A stretch of 62,756 nucleotides of DNA, filler included, from Squatina squatina (taxonomy: Eukaryota), in the NCBI GenBank assembly GCA_031763465.1. It is 4 parts of 4 records of this genome, joined end to end, with 100 filler letters (N's around TTAATTAATTAA, not from the genome) between each part and the next. Parts side by side here need not be neighbours in the genome. Positions count along the whole stretch, not along the records: positions 13,105 to 33,523 come from JARFOE010000100.1; 3 more parts are not named here. One strand, given 5' to 3'. This document shows, piece after piece, positions 11,718 through 48,576 of the stretch. Below the pieces are notes generated by a model. That model was not told the origin of the DNA, searched no databases, and saw only the letters and a list, made by a program, of their open reading frames with translations. Made by a program: the position numbers and the translations under genes. How positions within the stretch are numbered: position 1 is the stretch's first letter; each line of letters opens with the position of its first letter.

Positions 11718-12230
11718 CTATTATAAACTGGCAGGACAAACGCACCAACGTTAGCGTCCTCACCCAGGCCAACATCCCCAGCATCGAGGACCTGGATACG
11801 CTCAATCAGCTGCGATGGGCCAGTCACGTCGTCCGCATGCAAGATACAAGCTCTCTATTCCAAACTCCGCCATGGGAAACGCCTCCGAGGAGGGCAGTGG
11901 AAACGCTACAAGGACGTTCTCAAGACCTTATTGAAGAAATGCAACATCCCCACTGACTCATGGGAATCCGCGGCCCAGGATCACCTGCAATGGAGAAGAG
12001 CCATCCGTGAAGGCACCAACCATTTTGGCGGAAGCATGCTGAGGACAAACATCGGCAGAGGAAGGAGCGCGCAGCAACTCACTCATCCCTGCCACTTGTC
12101 TCTTCAAGTATCACCTGCGGCCGCGTCTGCGGCTCCTGCATTGGACTATTTAGCCACCTCAGAACCCACAACTTCGGAGTGGAAGCTAGTCATCCTCGAA
12201 CCTGAGGGACTGCCTAAGAGAGAGAGAGAG
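11718..12230 (+). mobile_element. RTE-clade LINE 3' fragment
   Basis: INWQDKRTNVSVLTQANIPSIE...QLRWASHVVRM...LYSKLRHGKRLRGGQWKRYKDVLK...CNIPTDSWESAAQD, ending in an (AG)n tail. Confidence 0.85.
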
Positions 12231-12377
12231 TAAAAACAGAAAAGCAGATTATTATCTGAATAGTGATAGATTGGGAANNNNNNNNNNNNNNNNNNNNNNN
12301 NNNNNNNNNNNNNNNNNNNNNNNNNNNNNNNNNNNNNNNNNNNNNNNNNNNNNNNNNNNNNNNNNNNNNNNNNNNNN

Positions 12378-12907
12378 AGCCTCAGGACCTCCGTCTCACT
12401 GTGCCCAGTCTCTTTCACCTCCAGCAGGATGCCAGCCGGCACCGTCAGCCAGGGGGGCAGCCCCCCCCGGGAGAAGATCATGGTGGGCAGAAGGTGGCCG
12501 TCGGCCAGGATGGTGAAGACGATCACAAACTGTGGCTGCCCCGTCCCCGCCACTCCCAGGCTGCCAGGAGCCGCCTCGGGCCGCCGCAGCGATTCCGGGT
12601 CCAGGAAAATTGGGATCTCGTCCATGTTGGCGATCCTGCGGCGCGGGAAGCCCCGCCCGCCGATCTGGCTCTGGGCGAACTCGACGAAGCTCCGCACGTT
12701 GTCCTCCATCTCCGGCGGCAGCTGACGGGCCACCGTGATCTTGGCGTAGGCGATGAGGTTGCGCCGCAGGAGGAAACCCACCGCCCACAGGCAGGAGTCG
12801 GCCAGCCCCCGGCCCCCGCAGCCCGGGAGCTCGGCGAGCTTGCGCAGCAGGGTCTCCTCAGTCAGGGGGAGCTGCCGCTCCCGCTGCACCAGCACCCACT
12901 CCACCAG
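12378..12907 (-). CDS. POGZ: POGZ-like domesticated pogo transposase, part of the terminal exon (CENP-B HTH end plus DDE domain start); truncated by a gap and an abrupt junction
   Basis: [20 protein letters not shown]...[11 protein letters not shown]...[10 protein letters not shown]...[25 protein letters not shown]...[16 protein letters not shown] aligns collinearly with recalled human POGZ ([20 protein letters not shown]...IDEISLFLD...ILADGTVLPTLVF...ILLEAKESGYSDDEIM). No stops; CGN is on the same scaffold. Confidence 0.85.
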
Positions 12908-13004
12908 TAAAATTGTGATCATTGATGCCAACCAGCCTGGCACCATTATGGACCAGTTTATAGTGTGCAACGCTCATGTTCTGTGTATTACCAGTGTCCC
13001 GGGT

Positions 13005-18599: not shown

Positions 18600-18657
18600 A
18601 TCAGAAGACGAAGACCTACTCCAGCTTCACTGGTTATTCTAAATGAGTCGTCACCAG
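18600..18657 (+). CDS. PPP1R1C: Protein phosphatase 1 regulatory inhibitor subunit 1C, second coding exon (PKA site)
   Basis: tttccacag acceptor and GTAATA donor; IRRRRPTPASLVILNESSP matches recalled PPP1R1C IRKRRPTPASLVILNE (inhibitor-1/DARPP-32 RRRPTPA motif). Lies tail-to-tail with PDE1A as in human 2q31-32. Confidence 0.9.
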
Positions 18658-21600
18658 GTAATAGATAACAGTGATAGAAATCATATGAACTTCGCATATG
18701 ATATACAATGACAAGTCAAACAATGGGTTTATTTGCGGTAGCATGACTGAATTAATCACTGCTGATTATTCTAAAATATTAGCACATAAGCACAAAGAAA
18801 GTAACTTAATTGTTTCATTAACATCCTGGGGAAATGCAGTATCAATTTCAAAATTTTGGGAAGAACATTTTTATTTGAATATGTCTCTTTAAAATCCATG
18901 AAATGTATAAGTTAATCAACTGTGATTTGCTGAAAAAGCTTCCAAACCTCTGCTACCTAAATGCTACTTTAACAATTCACCAGATCTGCATAATTGTAAT
19001 GCTGGAGACCCTCAGCTGTCTTTTACCTCCAGTTACCAGTGACCTGATACCACTGATAAAAGAGACGCATACTGACAAAGGCAGTCAATGCTGAAGATGT
19101 GTACGTAAGATTGCATTAATGAAGATTTTGACCTAAAGGTTACATGGTATCCGACTCACCACCGTCATTTTAAATCTCCTCATTCAGTGTGCATACGGAG
19201 AGGAAAGCTAATGTGAAAAGATGGGAATGTATTTGATCAGCAGAAAGCAGAATGCTCTTGGCTTTTCTGCAGCTGTTTCCCCAGATTTGTTCAAGTGGGC
19301 AGCTCTCGGCTATGTCCTTGTGAATTATAAACAGAGTACGAGATAAAGAAATTGGGCTCTGAAAAATGGCAGTCACTGATTTCTGGCACTGTGTACATGC
19401 ACCTTTTGCCCTTGAGTTTTTTTTAAACGTTTGGCTGTCTGACTTTATTACTGGATATGTCATTAAAATCTGTTTGCACATTGTTAGCCCTTAGCCTGTC
19501 CTTGTGTGTGGTTGTATAAATGCATAGTTTCTTAGTTTACTGAGAAAATGGATCCATCAGTACTTTTTTTATTGAACACACTGAATGACATAAGTCTGTT
19601 CAGAAGTAAACTGAAACATTCTGGAAGCAGGCAGTAGTGAAACAACTCTCTCAGGAAATGAGTCATCGGCCAAAGTACTGCAAGAGTCATAGGGCAGCAT
19701 TATAGGTTCTACAAAATACAGTATTAGTTTCCACAGAAATTTACACAACAGGCTTAGAGTTTGCTAGCTTGAACTTACTGAAGACCTTTTAGTATCAGGT
19801 AAAGTACTTATTGATGTATTTAGATCAGATGATTAGTGGAACACAGGACCTCTACAGAAGTCTTCAGGTTTCAGCCTAATTATGGGCAGTCTGCTGACGC
19901 AGGCAAAATCCGTTACTACACCAAAGATTCAATGTCAATCTCTGGCCAGTTGTATTCTATATACTTGGAGCTGGCATATCGATGAGTATTTATCAGAGAA
20001 TATTGGTAGTAATTGTAGTAACTCAAGCATGCAATTTGCAATGGTTTCATCCCAACAAAAATACAAATGCAATCGGTGGAGAAATTTAAAACATTAAGTT
20101 CATCTTCATTGGCAGTGCTCCCAAACCAAGATAAAATGCTCTCCATATCTGTAACTATTTGTAATTCTTTTTGCCTTCCTCTCTTTCTATTTATCTTCCA
20201 CTATCTCTAGCTCTCATTTGCTTTTTTCATTGTTTCTCACTCTTTCCTTCATAATTCTGTTCTTCTCTCTGTCCACTCTTCTGCTTGTTTATCATTGTGT
20301 CTCTATATATCTTACACGTGTTCCTTTACTGATTGACTGAATTTGTATCTTTTTGTATATTTTGAAGGCTAGGGTGTACAGCACAATGAGAAATAAAATG
20401 TACCTGGTTGAAAATAGGGTTGGGGGCAGGCACAAAGAGGCCATCTGGGTGATGCTCGAGCACAGAAGAGTGTAAGAGAAACTGGGGTATGGACCTCAGC
20501 TGAAGAAAGTGAGGCTTAGGCTGGCAAGAAGTAGGGGCATGGGGCCTGGCCTGTGGATGGTCATTCTGCTGATATTGTNNNNNNNNNNNNNNNNNNNNNN
20601 NNNNNNNNNNNNNNNNNNNNNNNNNNNNNNNNNNNNNNNNNNNNNNNNNNNNNNNNNNNNNNNNNNNNNNNNNNNNNNGAGCATTGACCATCCACTCCTG
20701 ACCAGCTCTCTGCCTTCCCACAGCAGTGCACTATGGTTATATGGTTGTCAATTTTTTTTGACTGCACTGTTACTATCATCTCTGCCTGTTCAGCAATCTT
20801 CTTGACCCGCATTTAAGAATTTATCCTAAAGCTGGAACCTGTGGTTACCTCCTAATCTATCATGCTGCCCCACCCCTTGTCATCAATTCTGCCAATACTA
20901 TTCACCAGAATCTGCTGCTGACTGTAGGTGTATTTACCAACCAGTTCACATTTGCTCAAATTGAAAGCTGATTTCTTGGTAAAGTGTTTTTCACCAAATT
21001 GCAGAGGAGTCACATGACTGGGCCAGACCTGCTGTCCTTGACTAATGGTTTTAGCTCCAGCCTGGTTGCCTGTGTGGATAAGCACCTTCTTATTAACAAG
21101 TACTGTTTGCTTAGATTCATCATTAAGGAAAATGAACCNNNNNNNNNNTACTTAATAGTCCATACTTATCTCCCCTTTTAGGGCCATCTGCTCAAAACGC
21201 TTATCCTGACATAATTTTTTTTTAAAACAAAGCTTGCCATAGGATTAGTTGCAAATCCTGTGGGGATTTTGCTATCCTTGTAGGAACTCAATAGATCCTT
21301 TGAGAATATGTTGTGAAACCTATAGGATTTTTAGTAATGGATTGCCCTTTCTGAAACTCAGCAAATAATGCAGCAGCTTGTGTTTCTTAGCATTGCCATT
21401 TATATTTTCAATCTCATCTCATCTTTCCAGGCTAAAAGCCATTAGAAAGCATACTGTCTGCTTCATTGCTTCCTTTAATCTGCACCTAAAATGAGACCAA
21501 AAGGCAAATCAATGACCAAATGATCCAGAATGCATTTTTCTGGAGCCCAGTTAAATTACCTCCATCAGCTATAACCACAGCTCACATTTGTGCACTTTCT

Positions 21601-24484
21601 TTATTTACTTCATTAGCATGGGTAGTGATCTGNNNNNNNNNNTGAAAGTGCCCAATATTATCATCTGAGAGAGGAAGCCCATCTGTTGAGCTTGATTTGA
21701 ACCCAGACACCAGAGGTAAAAGCAAAATGCCCGTGCCACTCAATCCACACGGCTATCACGGAGAAGCAAACATGATGGTAGAAATGTTTTACTTTGAAAT
21801 TACAGTTTGTTTCTAGTGGAACTGGCATTGTTAAGGAGATAGAATTGGTCTTTTTGTTGAGGAACATTAGTCTGAGTCTCTAGAGAGTAAAACATGACAT
21901 TTCATGCACAGAAGTGCCATTGGAATTTTAGACATCCATTTTCCAAGAGTTAGAATGGAATAAGTGCATCATTACTGCCATCTCTCCTCCATCTGTTCAA
22001 GTGGATAACTTTCACACTGCCTTGAGTTTTAAATTTAAACAATTCATTCCAGATCATTCAATGAAACAGCTCACATGGACTCTGTTGCTGGGATTATGGT
22101 ATTCCATGGAGAAGTTCATAGAAAATCTTCCTGTTCAAAGGATAATAATATTAAATGCAACTGAACTATGTGTTAGTTCAATTTATTGTGGATGAGGTCA
22201 AGGACTGCCTTATTAATTAGCTAATTAAAATAGCAGTGAGCATGTTTCACATCTGTGACAGGATTTCATAGCGTCAACGCTTTACATGAGAACTCTGACA
22301 TAATTAAAGTCTGATGTTAATACTCTTCAGTGGGTTATCGTGACAGAACAACAAGATAGTAATCCGTCTGTGGATTTTTAATCGTAAATATTCCGTCATA
22401 TTCATGTTTCTAAATTTGCAGTAAAGTTCTTCTAGTCTGCTCAATTGACTAGTGCATATGAAACTTCTGAAATGTATTCGAGGTACATGTGAAAGATTTA
22501 CCATATGTACTGCAGTGCTCCTTACATCTGTAAAATGGCAAGGCAGAGTTATCAAATTGAGCTTTTATTGATGTAATACATTATTGAATTCCTCACTGCC
22601 ACTCATTTTCATTTTAGTCTCTGAAAAAGAGAAATTTCTTCTGTTGATAGTTTTCTTAGAAAAAAGAGTAAATTCATTTGATTTTACACCTGAATATTGA
22701 GGGTGTGGGGGATGTGAGGGTAATTTTAACCTCACCCACCTGTGAGAAATTGCCAGGATGAGATCAGTTGCCTGTTTTAGACCTCACCAGTTAACATCAG
22801 TAGAAAGTAATATCATGCGGAGTGTGAAATGGGCGGCTGACCAGATTCCAGCAGTCTACTGTTGAGCGAGTTTGCTTAAAATTACCCACATGGATTCTTA
22901 TATCGATATTTAATAATCTTGGGGTTCCCTGATCGGCCCCCTAACTTCGGCAGAAGATTGGTGGAAAGCCCAGAGAAATGGCATAAAGGCGGNNNNNNNN
23001 NNNNNNNNNNNNNNNNNNNNNNNNNNNNNNNNNNNNNNNNNNNNNNNNNNNNNNNNNNNNNNNNNNNNNNNNNNNNNNNNNNNNNNNNNNNNTGTCTTGT
23101 ACACAATTGAATTTTCTGCTCTCTCTTTTTTTCCTCCTTTCTTGTTTTACTACAGTTATGCAGTGGAGCACTGGCAGTGGGAACTTACTGTATTAGGATT
23201 TTTAGCACCCATGTGTCTATTTTAGCATCGGTCTTTACTTTATACCATAGCAATACTGCTGTGGGTAAACCGCACACATAAACTTATTATTATCATCTAA
23301 AAGTGATTTATTAACAAAGGAATCCTGATTAAAGATTTTTAAAATTAAAATTGTGGCTAAATGATTATAGAATCATTTAACTACAAATGGTTTGATGAAA
23401 TTTTAAGTTAGATGTTATCTAACTATGTAACACAATAATAGGCAATAACTTACATTAACTCAGTCGTAAAAATGAAACATTTGAAGTCAAATAATGCTTT
23501 AACTCAAATTTTGTCTAAATTACAATTACAAATATCTACATTTGTTTTTAAATTTCTCAAGTTTTTAGACTTTAGTAGCTTCACATGTCTTGCATTTCCT
23601 TCTTGGAATACTGCTGTTTTAATTTAGAATGAGAGCCAACCAGTTTGCACTATGGGAATATTGAGGTTTAGTTACATCCTTGTCCATTGGCAACCACTTA
23701 ATATCTTTAATTGTATATATACCACTCAGTGTTCCTATATATCATTAAAGATGATTTGAATTGCCATTAATGTTATTTGTTTTTAGATGGTGGTGTTCCT
23801 CCACTTCTGGGAATGAAATNNNNNNNNNNNNNNNNNNNNNNNNNNNNNNNNNNNNNNNNNNNNNNNNNNNNNNNNNNNNNNNNNNNNNNNNNNNNNNNNN
23901 NNNNNNNNNNNNNNNNNNNTATCCACATACAGCAAGATCTGGCAAAATCCAGACTTGGAGGTGGAAGTTAACATTATTAGTCCCACTTAAGTGCCACGTA
24001 ATGACCATCTCCAACAAAAATGGCCCAACCACCTCCTGCTGACCTTCTGTAGCACCACCAGGCATTCCATTCCTGGCAGCAGTCAGCTTCCTTTTGGTGG
24101 CAGGGATGCCGATATGCATGCCCGCCAATTGAAACCCGGCCCAAGAAAATAGGTCGGAGGGATGGCAAGTTTGCAGCTGTGGACTAAAATCCCACCAGGT
24201 AAGGTAAGGAATTGGGCTGTAATGGAGGGCGGGGAGGCAGTTACTAGGCCAAATCCCTCTTTCAAAAAACTTTGGGACCTTCCTGCTGCAACACCAGGGA
24301 CAAACGCCAGGCTTCACATGGCAGTCTGGGGAATAGCAATAAGAGGGGAAATGTGTCAGGAACCTTAAGAAGAAAATAAAACAGTTGCATTAGGATAATT
24401 ATTTTGTTGCTGTGCATTTATTCTAGTGTAACATGAAGTATTTATTTCTCCCCTTTCAATAGGCTGTTGAGAGTGAGTTTTATC

Positions 24485-24680
24485 AAAAGCAAACTACTGC
24501 AGCTGCTGGAAATCGGAAATAAAAACAGAAAATACTGGAATTACTCAGCAGAGCAGGCAGCGTCTGTGGAGACCGTTTCAGGTTCAGACGAAAGGTCATC
24601 AACCTGAAACGTTAACCTTGTGTCTCTCTTCACAAAGCTGTCTGGCCTGCTGAGTATTTCCAGCATTTTCTGTTTTTATT
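24485..24680. mobile_element. Palindromic shark interspersed repeat (probably Penelope-associated)
   Basis: aataaaaacagaaaatactggaattactcagcag... pairs with ...ctgctgagtatttccagcattttctgtttttatt; a second copy lies at about 4145-4270. Confidence 0.7.
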
Positions 24681-25011
24681 GGTGAGTTTTATCAGTTGCT
24701 TCACTAATCACCTCCTTGGATTAACTGGACTGAACTTGATGCAATGATCTTATAAAGTAAGAGAAAATGATATGACGTCTGACTCTAAGCCCCCTAAAAG
24801 GGACAGGCAATGACTCTTCCAGTTACATATCTTAATAGATTATTGGTATATGAAGTATAACCTTTGTCTGGAGGATAGCCACCACTCTTCCTGAAGGAAA
24901 GCAGCTTTTCCTGCAGCGGACACAACTGACTGAAACATACTATATTATCTGTATATTGTCATTGTAGTGACTGCTACACCACATGGCTTTGAACAGTTAT
25001 TTCTATCACAG

Positions 25012-25176
25012 TTACAGGAACAGAACAGGTAGTTCCCCTTAAATGTAATGACGATGTGCCTCACCAGTTCTCAAGGAGTTCACAGCAACAACAGACAGAA
25101 ACAGACACAGATGAGCAATCTTTGAAACCTCGGCGGAAAGACACTCCCTTTCAGCACCAGCCACCACTCATGACAG
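25012..25176 (+). CDS. Putative PPP1R1C exon carrying a G-substrate (PPP1R17)-type PKG site
   Basis: Open phase-1/phase-1 exon (in-frame acceptors give starts at 24997, 25012 or 25018; donor ACAG|GTAGAC): TGTEQVVPLKCNDDVPHQFSRSSQQQQTETDTDEQSLKPRRKDTPFQHQPPLMT(G). The end aligns without gaps to recalled G-substrate KPRRKDTPALHIPPFIPG. Confidence 0.78.
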
Positions 25177-28427: not shown

Positions 28428-31017
28428 CAAACAGAAATGGATAAATGTAACCAATTAATTCATAATACGGAGGAGTACTGTACAGTCAAATATCAACATT
28501 TAGCTTGAACTGGTCATTCAAATGGTTTGAAATGTTTGAACTTAATTACATATAGGAATTTTGTAAGCTGGTTTGACATCATCACGATTCCCTGATGTAG
28601 AAGAAGTGAAAATTACATATTCGGAGCTGGCAAATTCATTCCAACATATTTTGCCCATTGGCGAGATTAGGGAATGATCATTGTTTGATTTTCATTTTGC
28701 TACATTCGAAGGTTTAAAGCGAAGCTCCTGTTGGAACAGCCAGGTATTCAAACTTCATCTCAACATGTCCAATTTTATGGAAGGGATAAGTGGCTTTTCA
28801 GAAATTTGGTCTCATCCCAGTACCCAGTCTTACACTCGATACCAGACAGCGTAAGGATGTCCCAATTCAGAAGTGAGACTTTGGCATGCCAATTTACTTA
28901 TCTTTCCTACTTTAACTTGCTTAGAATGATAGAGTAGGCTTGATCATTACTGCTGTGGTCAGTGCTCCTCCTCATAAATCCCAAATTGATATTGTATCTA
29001 TCTTTTCCTCTCTCCTCTTCTCACAGTGGAACGAAATAAAAAAGAATGGAAAAAATATATAAAAAGGTGCTGAACTTCTAATGTTCCCACGACTGAAGGA
29101 ATGTCAACCCTCAAGTACAGCTCACCAGCTGAAATGCCAGCCTGTCTGAATATTCTTACTCAAGCTAAATGTATTTAGGGTTAATTCTTGTTATTATGTT
29201 GAAGAATGTGATTTTACTGCTATTTTGATCAAACAGTTTAAGTTAGAATGATACTAAGGAGCAGTCATCCTTTTAACCCTTACAGGACAGCAGTGCCTAT
29301 TGCACCGGAATCAAAACAAACGCAAAGTGCAAGTGGAAGACATTCAGCTGCTGGCTGCCCATTTTTTGCCTGAAATATAGGTGACTGGCAGTTGATAATC
29401 TGGTAGAGACCTCATATATTTGACCACTTGAATCAACTTTCAGGTAGGCCTTTAAATGGCCGCTCAGCTCTCCTGCCCAAAACAGGCAGGAGGCTGTTCA
29501 AATATACAAGTTGGGGTCCAACGCTTGTTGTAGGACCTGGGTTGCTACTTTCAAGAAGAAGTGGGCGAAGCCTGCAGGGTACCCGCCAGTCTTCCTTTCT
29601 CCTGGCTTTGCGAGGCCTGACCGGTAGTCGGTAAAGTTAAGTATTTTATTTTATTTTAAAAAGATCGCATCATTGTTCACATTATTCCCATGGGACCAAA
29701 CCCCAAGCTTTAACCTGAACCCAAAAGTTATTTGCACTTCCTGAATACTGAATTCCTTTTCTTTTCACCTGTTATGGAGACATGGAGGAAGATTTTGGCT
29801 TTAAACTGCTGCAGAAATGAAGTTTTTCTCTTCCTGGGAGTGGGGCTTTGGGAATGGGAAACTAAAATGTTTGTTGTCTTGTTGCTTTTCAAGTCTGTGG
29901 TGGGCTGGGGTGGATCCTGGGGTTGGGGCTAGAAAGAAGGTTGGGACTTGGAATAGGCTGCAAAAAGGCCAGAGCTTGGGGCTTAGACTTGGAGAGTGCA
30001 AGTAGAAAGGTGTGGACTTGGCTGCAGAGTGATAGTCAAGTTGAAGGTTAGAGTTTGGTCCCTGTAGACAATGTAATTAATGATGTACTAATGGTCGTGT
30101 GGTTGGCATGGACCAATTAGGCTGTCAAATTGCACTAAAGCTAAAACATTTCCAGTACTTAAATGTTAAAAGTTATACAAGTTACAGCAACTGTGTACAT
30201 CAGACTTGTCCAACATACAGCTCCAGGTTCATGCTTGTCCACTAAGCATGGCTAATTTGTCCCTGAAACCCAGGCAATTCATTCCTATTTTGGTTTATAT
30301 TTATTTGCTGGCTTGTACTTTTTGAATGCTGTGATCTGGAGGTTTAGAAAGAGCTGATTTTAGTGCTGTTGCCTCACTGGTGCGTTATTTGTAGCTCAGA
30401 ACACTGAGTTCTGTTGGTATCAGCAACTTGAGAAATATGTACATAAATAGCAACATGGACTTAAACTTTATAAGTGGCCTCAAGGCCCCTTGATGAACAC
30501 CTATAGTCCACAAAGACATAAGCTTAGAACCCCTGGTAGAAATAAATACATTGCTCCCTGCAATATTATTCTGATTTCATTAATAGCTCATGAATAAAAA
30601 TCACTACAATTGCTGCTCGTGATTTTTGTTGTTTATTAACCTATAATTACATTCAGAGAAGTACCTAATAAGACCCTTAAGTTAATGGAACTCTTTCCCC
30701 GGCACCCCCCTACAACTTTTGAAAAATACAGCCCATACTTCGCATATGCAAAATATTGCTCTGCCAATATCTTTCAGCTGTAAACATTACCTAAAAGCTG
30801 CCTGGTAATCTAGTGCAAAAGTGCTCAAGGCTACATCCAATAAAGAGTAACTGAAATAATTTTATAACAAATCTAATTACACTATAACACCAGCAGTAGA
30901 GAGACTTGCATTTGTGTAATGTTTTATCACATGTCTCAGAAAGTACTTCCTATAGAATGAAATATTGGAAATATAGCCTTTTATACTATGTTTTACTCTC
31001 AAAGAGTCTCATCTTAC

Positions 31018-31143
31018 CGCCAATCATCTTTAGATAAATTGCACATGATATTCATTTCTTCTTCTTGCATTAATCGGTAGGCAGCGCTCACATGATAGTT
31101 TTCAAGAACAGAACGATCATTGTATAAAATAGCTACACCTGAC
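31018..31143 (-). CDS. PDE1A: Ca2+/calmodulin-dependent phosphodiesterase 1A, catalytic-domain exon
   Basis: 126 bp, cag/GTAAGA; (R)SGVAILYNDRSVLENYHVSAAYRLMQEEEMNIMCNLSKDDW(R). The VAILY and RLMQEEEM features fit PDE1A rather than PDE1C. Confidence 0.93.
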
Positions 31144-32052
31144 CTGTTGATAAATGTATTAAATATAATAATTTACATTGAATATTTTATTCTATGATAA
31201 AGTGGCTACAAAAATCTAAATTAAAAACAAAGGCACTGAAACTACACNNNNNNNNNNNNNNNNNNAGCCATTGCTAGCTGCCTCTGACATGACTGGCACC
31301 TGCAGTTCACCAGTAATAAGCAAATGAGGCCGGCGGACCAGTTTTCTGTGGTCCTGCCGCCGACCTTGTTCGGCGCTGCGCTGAGTTCGTGCTTCCGGAC
31401 ACGGCCCAATTTCTAGGGCAGAAACTCCAGAAGGAAGGCTTGGGGACAGGCTTAGTTCATTTTTGTTTTTTAAAACGCAATTCCTTTATATGTTAATGCA
31501 TTGAAAGTGCCAGAAATTTGTAACTCTTGTAGATCTCCAGAAGTATGTAGCATACATTTTTTTACATGATCAAAATGAAACAAGATGTCACCACAAATTG
31601 TATAAACAATGGCAAGAATATTGTGGTAAAAAGAATGGCAGCGGTTGTAAAAGAAAAAGACCTAAAAATATAACACCTCCTGATGTATTGCGAGCTCTTA
31701 TTATTGAGGTAGAGGTCTGTCTTGGGCAGTGGCGTGGAGCAGATGCTAGCGAATCAGCCACCCATAGACTTCCCACCTGATATTCAGTTCCACTGACTTC
31801 AATAGAACTGATTATCAAATAGGTTGTATAAAAGGCAGCCAATACAATATCACTCACTTAGCACTACCGCATGTGGCAACATTTCAACCCCTGATCTAGT
31901 GTCACCCAATTAATAAATGTAGAAAGTTACACCATTTTTATTACCAAGATACCCACATTGAAATGAATTTTACTGAAGTACAATGACACACACTTTTAAG
32001 AAATTCGTATGGACATTTTATTATTTACACTTTGTGCAATATTGCTTCCTAC

Positions 32053-32153
32053 CTGGTTTGAATGTGGAAATTGTTCGTGGTCCCGGTATGTTCATAGTCA
32101 TGAATCGCAGCTGCAAAGAGCATGGCTAGAATTTCCAGTTCTGTAAACCAGTG
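32053..32153 (-). CDS. PDE1A: PDE1A catalytic-domain exon (HD metal-binding signature)
   Basis: 101 bp, cag/GTAGG; HWFTELEILAMLFAAAIHDYEHTGTTNNFHIQT(R); phases are compatible with both neighbouring exons. Confidence 0.95.
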
Positions 32154-32926
32154 CTGTAACAGAAAGGTTACAATTCGGGAAACTGCCGAGAATAATACTT
32201 CTGACTTACTCACCNNNNNNNNNNGAAGGCGTGACACGATTAGCAATAGAAAATCGGGCACAAAGGCTTGAAAGATGTCCGAGGCAAGCAGCATGTCCCA
32301 GTGCAGATGACGAGTACAAATCGTCGCGGCACAAGCTGTTCATTAAACACAACCTGAGTTCGACTTAAATGAGGTGCCTATTCCATAATGCCACAGAGTT
32401 GCCTGAGCAGGGTCTTGAACATAGAAAGCCCATTTGGAACAAGCGCTGGATGGAGGCCACGATAACATATAAAAATAAAATTTGGGCACTTCCTGCCCTT
32501 GCCACTGCTTGCCCAGTGCCCCTCCCCATCCATCGGNNNNNNNNNNNNNNNNNNNNNNNNNNNNNNNNNNNNNNNNNNNNNNNNNNNNNNNNNNNNNNNN
32601 NNNNNNNNNNNNNNNNNNNNNNNNNNNNNNNNNNNNGTATTACTTTGCTGAGTATGCTAATCGTGAACCATTAATGAATAGATCTATTTGGAAGATCTAT
32701 ATGGCATTTTGCTTCTGTTGCCGTTGATGCCACCATCTCAGAATGGTTGTGTTTCAATTCCATACCAAAAATAGCTTGTGATGTGAAAGCTTTTATATTG
32801 GATTCTTTGGCCACCTTCCAAGAACAAATTGGTCAAAACTGTCTCTGAAAGCATCAAGATCCTAAGCACAGACCTAAATACACACTACTGTTAAAATAGA
32901 ACAAGTCTATATTAACATACTCTTAC

Positions 32927-33067
32927 CATAATGCCAGTATGGAGCATTAGGTAATGCACAGTCTGGGCCACATCTGCTGCATGGATTAAGTTATGATAAG
33001 GATTCTTGTACTTGCTATAACCCGCCTCCAGGGCTTCAATGAAAGACATTAGAGAAGGTACAGGGAT
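32927..33067 (-). CDS. PDE1A: PDE1A catalytic-domain exon (YHNxxH motif)
   Basis: 141 bp, tag/GTAAGA; IPVPSLMSFIEALEAGYSKYKNPYHNLIHAADVAQTVHYLMLHTGIM, matching PDE1A GYSKYKNPYHNLIHAADV..TVHY.MLHTGIM. Confidence 0.95.
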
Positions 33068-47321: not shown

Positions 47322-48576
47322 AAGGGGTTAGAAGTGATGGAATCAGGTGATTTGTTATATAATGATATGCGCTTTGAAACTGTTTCGGTTGTTTTTAACT
47401 TAACCACTATGCATATGCCTGACGGATTGTGCCACAGTAGCTACTTTAATTTGTTTTGTCTCATGTTAAATGAAGTGGTAGGGGTTGTGCAGGCAAGGAG
47501 CCAAAGGACAGATTGGAGGAGCCCTGACCCAGACATGGGTGAAGGTCGAGCTGAATGGGTGGGGATAGGAGCCACCTCCGCATGGCCGGCCTGAATCGCA
47601 TAGATGGCAATTCTATATGGGAACATGGGATAAAGTTATACGGAGGCAACTGAATGGGATTTTGACCAAATTAAATGACCAAAGTGGGACCTAATCCATG
47701 AATATGGTAAAATTCTGTTATCCATGAAAGAGATAGTGGAGTCCATGTAGTCCATCAAGGATAAGGTCACTGAGATTATTGGGGAAAACAACCAGGAGTA
47801 CGAGCAGTAGAACGTCTTCAAAGCAGTCACCTGTATTATATATCGAAACTTTATGCTTACCTTGATATAAAAAGGATTGTCTGACCTCGATTTTAATCAT
47901 ACTGGCCACCTGGTTAGGGATCAATAAGATGCAGGAAGAATATAATCGCATCAGGTGGCATGGCCTGGCCTTTTTCGCCCCTCAGGTCCACTTTCAGGGC
48001 AGTGATGGCCAGGATTCAGTAATATTGGCAGTGCCGATCAGCGTGAACTCCACAGCCCCTCCCATGCGGTTGTATAAGGTAGAATCCATAGGAGTCACTG
48101 AACATTCCACTGACGATACCATCTTTAGGGAATTTCTGGACCATTGTTGATGGTTGATTAACAAAAAGGGCACGCGGTTAGCCCCAGACTTCAAGTGTTG
48201 CCGACAAGTTGGAAACGAGTGGGTATGTAGGTGTGATGTGTACCAGCACACTACACTCGCATGTGGGCTCACATTGGATGAGCATTCTCTAAATTGCACG
48301 GCAAGGCGAGAACTGCCTACATGGGGAAGGTACTGTATTACAACCAGTGCCTCGCACCTACATTATGGGGAAACCCTTTGACCGATTAATACCCCTACGT
48401 TCTGTCTCTTCGCAATTGAACCGGTCAAATCGGAAGTAACATGTTATTACCAGTTCACCTGCACAAGGTTACAGAAATACAGTTGGAGCTGCCCCTTCAG
48501 GAGGAAGCCCTAAGGTCAGTGGTCCACTTCAGCCACTCGATTCCCTCTCCCATCTCTTAGTTTGAAGTCAATCCTT
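47322..48576 (+). pseudogene. Decayed envelope/fusion glycoprotein gene of an endogenous retrovirus-like element (lokiretrovirus/paramyxovirus-F-like type)
   Basis: Joining frames gives GLEVMESGDLLYND..VSVVFNLT.../ Gly-Ala-rich GIGATS.MAGLNRID / heptad helix / C..Y..MLTLI..GLSDL / ILAVPI...RLYKVESIG / APDFKCCRQVGNEWVCRC....ACGL....NC / GRYCITT...PINTPTFC. Multiple stops and frameshifts; no TM anchor seen. Confidence 0.65.

Follow-up and report, generated by a model that had tools for sequence, protein, structure and literature searches.

In inhibitor-1 (PPP1R1A) and DARPP-32 (PPP1R1B), an N-terminal KIQF motif docks on protein phosphatase 1 (PP1), and the first phospho-threonine blocks the PP1 active site. 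Both proteins have the docking motif and an RRRPTPA phosphorylation site (Pfam family PF05395) in common with PPP1R1C, also called IPP5. The kinship of G-substrate (PPP1R17) to inhibitor-1 and DARPP-32 rested on a likeness of phosphorylation sites that the classic G-substrate papers reportedly noted. In the excerpts available from PMC10869263, PMC7809303, PMC2610389 and PMC8020659, G-substrate is described as a preferred substrate of cyclic GMP (cGMP)-dependent protein kinase (PKG), whose phosphorylated form inhibits PP1 and protein phosphatase 2A (PP2A); the excerpt of PMC7809303 also calls DARPP-32 an excellent substrate for both PKG and cyclic AMP (cAMP)-dependent protein kinase (PKA). The stretch of DNA analysed here, 62,756 nucleotides (nt) from the shark Squatina squatina (assembly GCA_031763465.1; "the window"), carries one PPP1R1C exon with an inhibitor-1-type site and a second with a G-substrate-type motif, KPRRKDTP. 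Weighing all the evidence below, the following explanation is, as a whole, fairly probable: one PPP1R1C transcript contains both, and the second, optional exon is a likely homolog of PPP1R17 exons and is predicted to supply a second kinase-controlled, phosphatase-inhibiting site.

The gene is represented in the window by these features:
18600..18657, plus strand: PPP1R1C coding exon 2, phase 0/1, with the inhibitor-1-type site RRRRPTPA (Thr codon 18618-18620), supported by Pfam and by a bridging RNA-run contig
25012..25176, plus strand: PPP1R1C cassette exon, 165 nt, phase 1/1, with the G-substrate-type module, supported by relatives' proteins and by contigs of four of four runs
25125..25148, plus strand: KPRRKDTP motif (Thr codon 25143-25145), with the splice donor 17 codons and 1 nt after the first Lys codon

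The first of these exons, 58 nt long, has good splice sites (borders, with a slash at each junction, TTTTCCACAG/ATC...CCAG/GTAATA) and translates to IRRRRPTPASLVILNESSP. It matches the Pfam DARPP-32 family PF05395 over profile positions 27-46 (E 1.9e-4), a match that falls under the curated cut-off because the exon is short. The second is an open frame with a polypyrimidine-AG acceptor and a G/GTAGAC donor, and its end reads KPRRKDTPFQHQPPLMT-G (KPRRKDTP...PPLMT). The motif occurs once in the window, against a chance expectation of 2e-6 over its six frames, and once per PPP1R1C protein. A sequence-only reading of this DNA had placed a canonical PPP1R1C exon and an open phase-1 exon at these two positions; coordinates, splice sites and the PF05395 match confirm the former, and the 1/1 phase and G/GT donor the latter. 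The window itself is a gappy scaffold, broken into 53 pieces with a median length of 1,024 nt and with 35 gaps of exactly 100 N. Its introns are strongly compressed and most of the gene is missing from it: two of the seven PPP1R1C coding exons are present and five, exon 1 among them, are absent. As the two that remain sit on different scaffold pieces, their linkage rests on relatives' proteins and a spliced contig, not on the window.

That contig, 930 nt from one RNA run, joins 18657 to 25003 with 90 letters between. The nine further letters to the acceptor bring the insert to 99 nt, or exactly 33 codons, which is what exons 3 and 4 encode in a relative's protein (P0003), and the loose ends of the contig read into the 3' end of exon 1 and into the last exon. 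The module exon is covered by contigs of all four runs, whose four pieces all stop at 25176 on the donor side. Upstream of it, the end of an 84-residue exon is seen in two other runs, and downstream the last exon in three. The four runs, taken from five that were guessed to be RNA and of which none is recorded as such, belong to two studies. In three of them, 2 letters in 166 are unlike the window, which indicates a close relative, not necessarily the same species.

Protein models of relatives show the same arrangement. A search with the module-exon peptide returned 18 proteins from 19 candidates, covering 12 named sharks, rays and a chimaera; 16 are named PPP1R1C, one is a hypothetical catshark protein and one an unnamed Logan record. 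Both phospho-sites are present in 16 of the 18, the remaining two being N-terminally different models. The module exon lies between the YTPPTMK exon, or the 84-residue exon that follows it, and the last exon. One of these proteins (P0002) matches PF05395 at E 1e-33, RRRPTPA included, and in the cartilaginous-fish relatives the N-terminal KIQF PP1-docking motif, RRRPTPA and KPRRKDTP stand in the same protein, KPRRKDTP about 85-175 residues downstream of the N-terminal sites in the long form. The existence of a transcript joining the two exons had been set beforehand as a test, and the 930-nt contig from a close relative represents such a transcript; the expected chondrichthyan conservation is borne out by the PPP1R1C models of the 12 named cartilaginous fishes. 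The suspicion that existing models might hold the motif uninterpreted was also right, since the exon lies inside RefSeq and UniRef PPP1R1C models whose names carry no comment on it.

Could the second exon instead be a fragment of PPP1R17 scaffolded into the PPP1R1C locus by mistake? A gapped window with the two exons on different pieces would suit such an artefact, which the sequence-only reading had named as its own undoing, and it counts against a single transcript that only one run in four yields a contig bridging both exons. However, a spliced contig does join them, and the exon is 95% identical to an internal segment of PPP1R1C models but shares only 12 of 22 residues, at its 3' end, with the exons of the two-repeat G-substrate-type gene introduced below. 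Mis-scaffolding is refuted by the relatives' PPP1R1C models and the bridging contig, and retains next to no probability; that both exons belong to one spliced composite PPP1R1C transcript is almost certain.

A match to the module outside PPP1R1C comes from a pattern scan of metagenome contigs, which found six loci. Two of them (L001 and L002) share a strand of the same contig, 1.9 kb from each other. The DNA of this contig is CpG-depleted and vertebrate-like, as of vertebrate host DNA with a two-repeat G-substrate-type gene; a fragment between the two exons is presumably CR1-like. L002 and L001, 153 and 162 nt long, are both phase-1/1 exons; each contains KPRRKDTP, and their mutual likeness is 131 BLOSUM points. 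Their donors, G/GTAAGA and G/GTGAGC, fall 17 codons and 1 nt after the motif Lys, as in the window exon. This position lay outside the search pattern. None of 27 chance pattern hits has G/GT there and one has GT, in a control set that includes prokaryote genomes (14 hits) and viral contigs (9) and whose members are not independent, many being copies of one bacterial sequence. A search of 1 kb downstream on the two-repeat contig gave no last exon.

The two genes thus compared share KPRRKDTP, a His at +4 from the Thr, a Pro-Pro, a phase-1/1 exon of 153-165 nt, an identical donor position and a PDE1 gene as neighbour. PRRKDTP had been read as the repeat motif of G-substrate, and the comparison upholds this: all eight residues of the window motif are identical to both repeats, and phase and donor position match. 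They differ in that G-substrate has two repeats and PPP1R1C one copy of the module, and in that the upstream two-thirds of the exon cannot be aligned (0-3 of 28 identities). The PPP1R1C module is joined to a PP1-docking motif and an inhibitor-1-type site, both of which we take G-substrate to lack. Because it has one motif and not two tandem repeats, the gene in the window is a PPP1R1C with a G-substrate-type module and not a PPP1R17.

Does the shared motif reflect common descent, or has a basophilic kinase motif arisen twice? Several observations weigh against homology, and the first two suit convergence. Only 18 aligned columns show protein similarity to the two-repeat gene, and the module profile scores L001 at 22.8 and L002 at 18.5 bits, barely above pattern-selected chance hits, which reach 19.2. 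Once the nine residues fixed by the pattern are set aside, the similarity is modest, scores as high being reached by 0.4% and 2.9% of 30,073 random windows; at +2, PPP1R1C has Phe or Tyr and both repeats have Ala; and the name PPP1R17 for the two-repeat contig is one that we presume from its layout and sequence, no tool having returned it. Against convergence stand the shared acceptor phase, the donor phase and position, the similar exon length, the Pro-Pro before the donor in both and the PDE1 paralog that both genes adjoin. Since the protein likeness is short, homology rests on motif, splice geometry and neighbourhood together. On these grounds the module exon is very probably homologous to the repeated exons of PPP1R17, and an independent origin of the motif is highly improbable.

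Homolog searches with the module peptide returned only cartilaginous-fish PPP1R1C, G-substrate sharing too few words with it to be retrieved. The Pfam set searched has no family for the module or for the L001 and L002 exons, and sequence searches of the PDB with P0002 and with an alignment found no relative. The precomputed family PF27915 marks 24 of the records described next, which by eye are all among the 39 with the module, none being among the 82 without; Pfam may have caught the likeness automatically already.

The taxonomic range of the module was taken from a search with the N-terminal region, using the best 120 of 840 matches together with the 18 earlier proteins. Removal of P0026, a chimeric database record made of inhibitor-1-like, elongation-factor and DARPP-32-like pieces, left 121 PPP1R1C records, 39 of which have the module: 18 of 24 from cartilaginous fishes, 2 of 3 from lungfish (one unnamed record being our own assignment to this group), 1 of 2 from coelacanth, 1 of 2 from caecilians, 13 of 23 from frogs and 4 of 11 from turtles. 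It is found in none of the 56 other records tallied (7 squamate, 1 crocodile, 2 rodent, and 46 bird and remaining records), and is also missing from four further amniote cluster members. Misses inside the retaining groups are skip or truncated isoforms. The whale shark and chimaera skip forms, of 112 and 107 residues (P0020, P0025), match the 109-residue PPP1R1C of rodents, birds, crocodiles and lizards, which is without the 84-residue and module exons and so corresponds to the shark skip form. That all these are the same gene is seen from KIQF, RRRPTPA, the YTPP exon and the last, VKHL exon, which match the named records. The module exon is an optional, skippable phase-1/1 cassette.

Turtles are the sister group of birds and crocodiles. 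Because turtles keep the module, it would have been lost three times or more, provided that the annotation is true to the genomes; against the losses it must be said that absence in amniotes is read from annotated proteins among the best 120 of 840 matches, with two mammals and no ray-finned fish. The sequence-only reading had sharks retaining the module and mammals losing the modules reciprocally. Retention holds for cartilaginous fishes and is not specific to sharks, extending to lungfish, coelacanth, caecilian, frogs and turtles, and the second half is too narrow: bird, crocodile and squamate records lack the exon just as rodent ones do, so its loss is not a mammalian event.

Where the module is kept, conservation centres on the motif. 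Its columns are conserved in 24-27 of 27 distinct module rows, compared with 9-24 of 27 for the 12 columns upstream, and the Thr, Pro-5, Arg-3 and Lys-2 are present in all 27; the row filter demanded most of the motif letters, and by eye no module exon in the records lacked them. Variants are QRKDT, in skate and manta, and RRKNT, RRKVT and TRKDT. The 84-residue exon upstream of the module (residues 80-163 of P0002; also in P0061) shows good conservation between sharks and lungfish. The window does not contain it, nor do the tetrapod and coelacanth records that were read; its start resembles the inhibitor-1-type segment of P0026 (ELQ..VEHHL). Exon 4 of PPP1R1C, like the module exon, is phase 1/1 and ends in Pro-x-x-x-Gly at the donor after a basic cluster. 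The two are possible ancient tandem duplicates, a score as high as theirs being reached by 3% of 3,609 random windows.

Downstream of both PPP1R1C exons, and tail to tail with them, lies a PDE1 gene, represented by three collinear catalytic exons (31017-33067, minus strand):
31017..31172, minus strand: open frame with PDE1 catalytic-domain exon (PF00233, E 1e-11; best PDB match PDE1B)
32052..32213, minus strand: open frame with PDE catalytic-domain exon (PF00233, E 1.4e-12)
32915..33067, minus strand: open frame with PDE catalytic-domain exon (PF00233, E 3.6e-4, profile positions 1-22)

These emerged from a scan of 261 minus-strand frames right of 26000, and one of the three was compared with the PDB. 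We take the paralog to be PDE1A, the best PDB match having been PDE1B. The exon at 31017-31172 reads LENYH where PDE1B has LENHH, either through a substitution or, the assembly being of low quality, through a base error. Families of ITPRID2 and NEUROD1 gave no match among 121 plus-strand frames upstream in the window.

On the G-substrate side, the sequence-only reading had put PPP1R17 beside PDE1C, ITPRID1 and NEUROD6. Two gene tables agree: NEUROD6, ITPRID1, PDE1C and PPP1R17 form a row on human 7p (PMC10525918), and PDE1C, PPP1R17 and NEUROD6 share one interval of chicken chromosome 2 (PMC9026094). Such a neighbourhood fits PPP1R17 as a fourth ohnolog and, equally, a neighbouring gene captured at the PDE1A locus. 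We also presume that PPP1R1A, PPP1R1B, PPP1R1C and PPP1R17 lie on the four Hox-bearing human chromosomes.

The capture explanation accepts that the exons are homologous and places PPP1R17 outside the inhibitor-1 family: separate inhibitor-1-type and G-substrate-type genes would have stood beside PDE1 before the genome duplications, and read-through splicing at the PDE1A locus would have joined them. It accommodates exon geometry, synteny and optional inclusion equally well, and among the best 120 of 840 matches there is no PPP1R17 sequence with the N-terminal KIQF/RRRPTPA part; those matches are PPP1R1C-type apart from the one chimeric record. Capture, however, requires one fusion more and, beside PDE1C, the independent loss of the inhibitor-1-type gene. 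Moreover, the exon that follows the YTPP exon and precedes the module in sharks and lungfish begins like the inhibitor-1-type exon in P0026, so the long gene would be at least partly ancestral. One lead points the same way: the C-terminal part of P0002 is nearest to PPP1R1A clusters in the Atlas (0.77), in a search that returned only PF05395 clusters (0.76-0.77), returned nothing when PF05395 was skipped and is given no weight. A short HIPPL motif near the end of mammalian inhibitor-1 is a lead for a possible trace of the module exon there. Capture is a possible but rather improbable origin.

That PPP1R17 is a fourth ohnolog, that it descends from an ancestral composite and that the second site works has, taken together, an even chance or somewhat better. 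On this ohnolog explanation an ancestral vertebrate gene beside PDE1 would have held both modules; the PDE1C-side copy would have lost its N-terminal exons and doubled the module exon to become PPP1R17, and the PDE1A-side copy would have kept both, with mammals, squamates and archosaurs separately fixing the skip form. The fullest version, to which we give even odds, makes G-substrate the fourth member of the inhibitor-1/DARPP-32/PPP1R1C family and their ancestor a two-input brake (cAMP and cGMP, PP1 and PP2A) whose second input was switched by splicing, retained today in sharks, lungfish, frogs and turtles and trimmed on three or more occasions in amniotes.

How would such a brake work? The long protein carries KIQF and RRRPTPA at its N terminus and KPRRKDTP downstream, the latter included or skipped by splicing, in a chain that is expected to be disordered. 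By analogy with inhibitor-1 and DARPP-32, KIQF would dock PP1 and the first phospho-Thr would block its active site. By analogy with G-substrate, cyclic-nucleotide kinases, preferentially PKG, would phosphorylate the second Thr, which might then serve PP2A, or the PP1 already tethered by KIQF, as a pseudo-substrate that is slow to be removed. Splicing would set whether a cell has this second input.

The kinase assignment is the weaker part of this proposal. Peptide-array matrices (PMC9876800, supplement file 3), whose scores are not percentile-normalised across kinases, give the first site 7.5, 5.8 and 6.2 for PKACA, PKG1 and PKG2. Two results tell against a PKG input: the second site scores lower, at 3.9, 1.9 and 3.1, and the difference PKG1 minus PKA is -2.0 there compared with -1.7 at the first site. 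Supplements of PMC3621391 and PMC6611643 contain no G-substrate site. Because the matrices predict no PKG selectivity, a clean division between cAMP and cGMP inputs is unproven, and the split into a PKA site and a PKG site proposed by the sequence-only reading is not what these non-normalised scores predict. The exon might thus be homologous and functional without being a PKG-specific phosphatase brake, its site serving another kinase, docking or localisation. The lack of PKG preference, the Pro at +1 that the PKA and PKG matrices both disfavour, the different +2 residue and the motif variants would all fit. Yet Arg-3, Lys-2 and Thr are invariant across the module rows and all eight residues of the motif recur unchanged in both repeats; the inhibitor-1-type site, moreover, also has Pro at +1 and is, we take it, a PKA site, which suggests that the matrices under-call this class of site. 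Such a different role is unlikely.

Two further stretches of the window contain open frames of other kinds. At 12149-12973 on the minus strand, a GC-rich open frame spanning a gap is presumably like a pogo/CENP-B-type transposase, although Pfam gave no support. At 47866-48378 on the plus strand, two adjoining cysteine-rich open frames, with no Pfam match, presumably resemble a degraded envelope-like gene of a mobile element.

Together, these results describe a real, conserved composite of two known phosphatase-inhibitor modules that has apparently gone uninterpreted. A literature search, with most subscription journals and the classic G-substrate papers outside its coverage, turned up no report of common descent for PPP1R17 and PPP1R1C; both are named in one paper, as unrelated candidate genes. 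Work on G-substrate has treated it as a PKG target in its own right, in cerebellar learning. The exon it shares with PPP1R1C provides a link at the level of the gene and makes the question of its origin testable with public genomes. In Xenopus (P0048, P0070) there is a natural single-site version tethered to a PP1-docking motif, in which the action of KPRRKDTP on PP1 versus PP2A could be addressed, and antibodies against the phosphorylated G-substrate site could cross-react with PPP1R1C in frogs and fishes.

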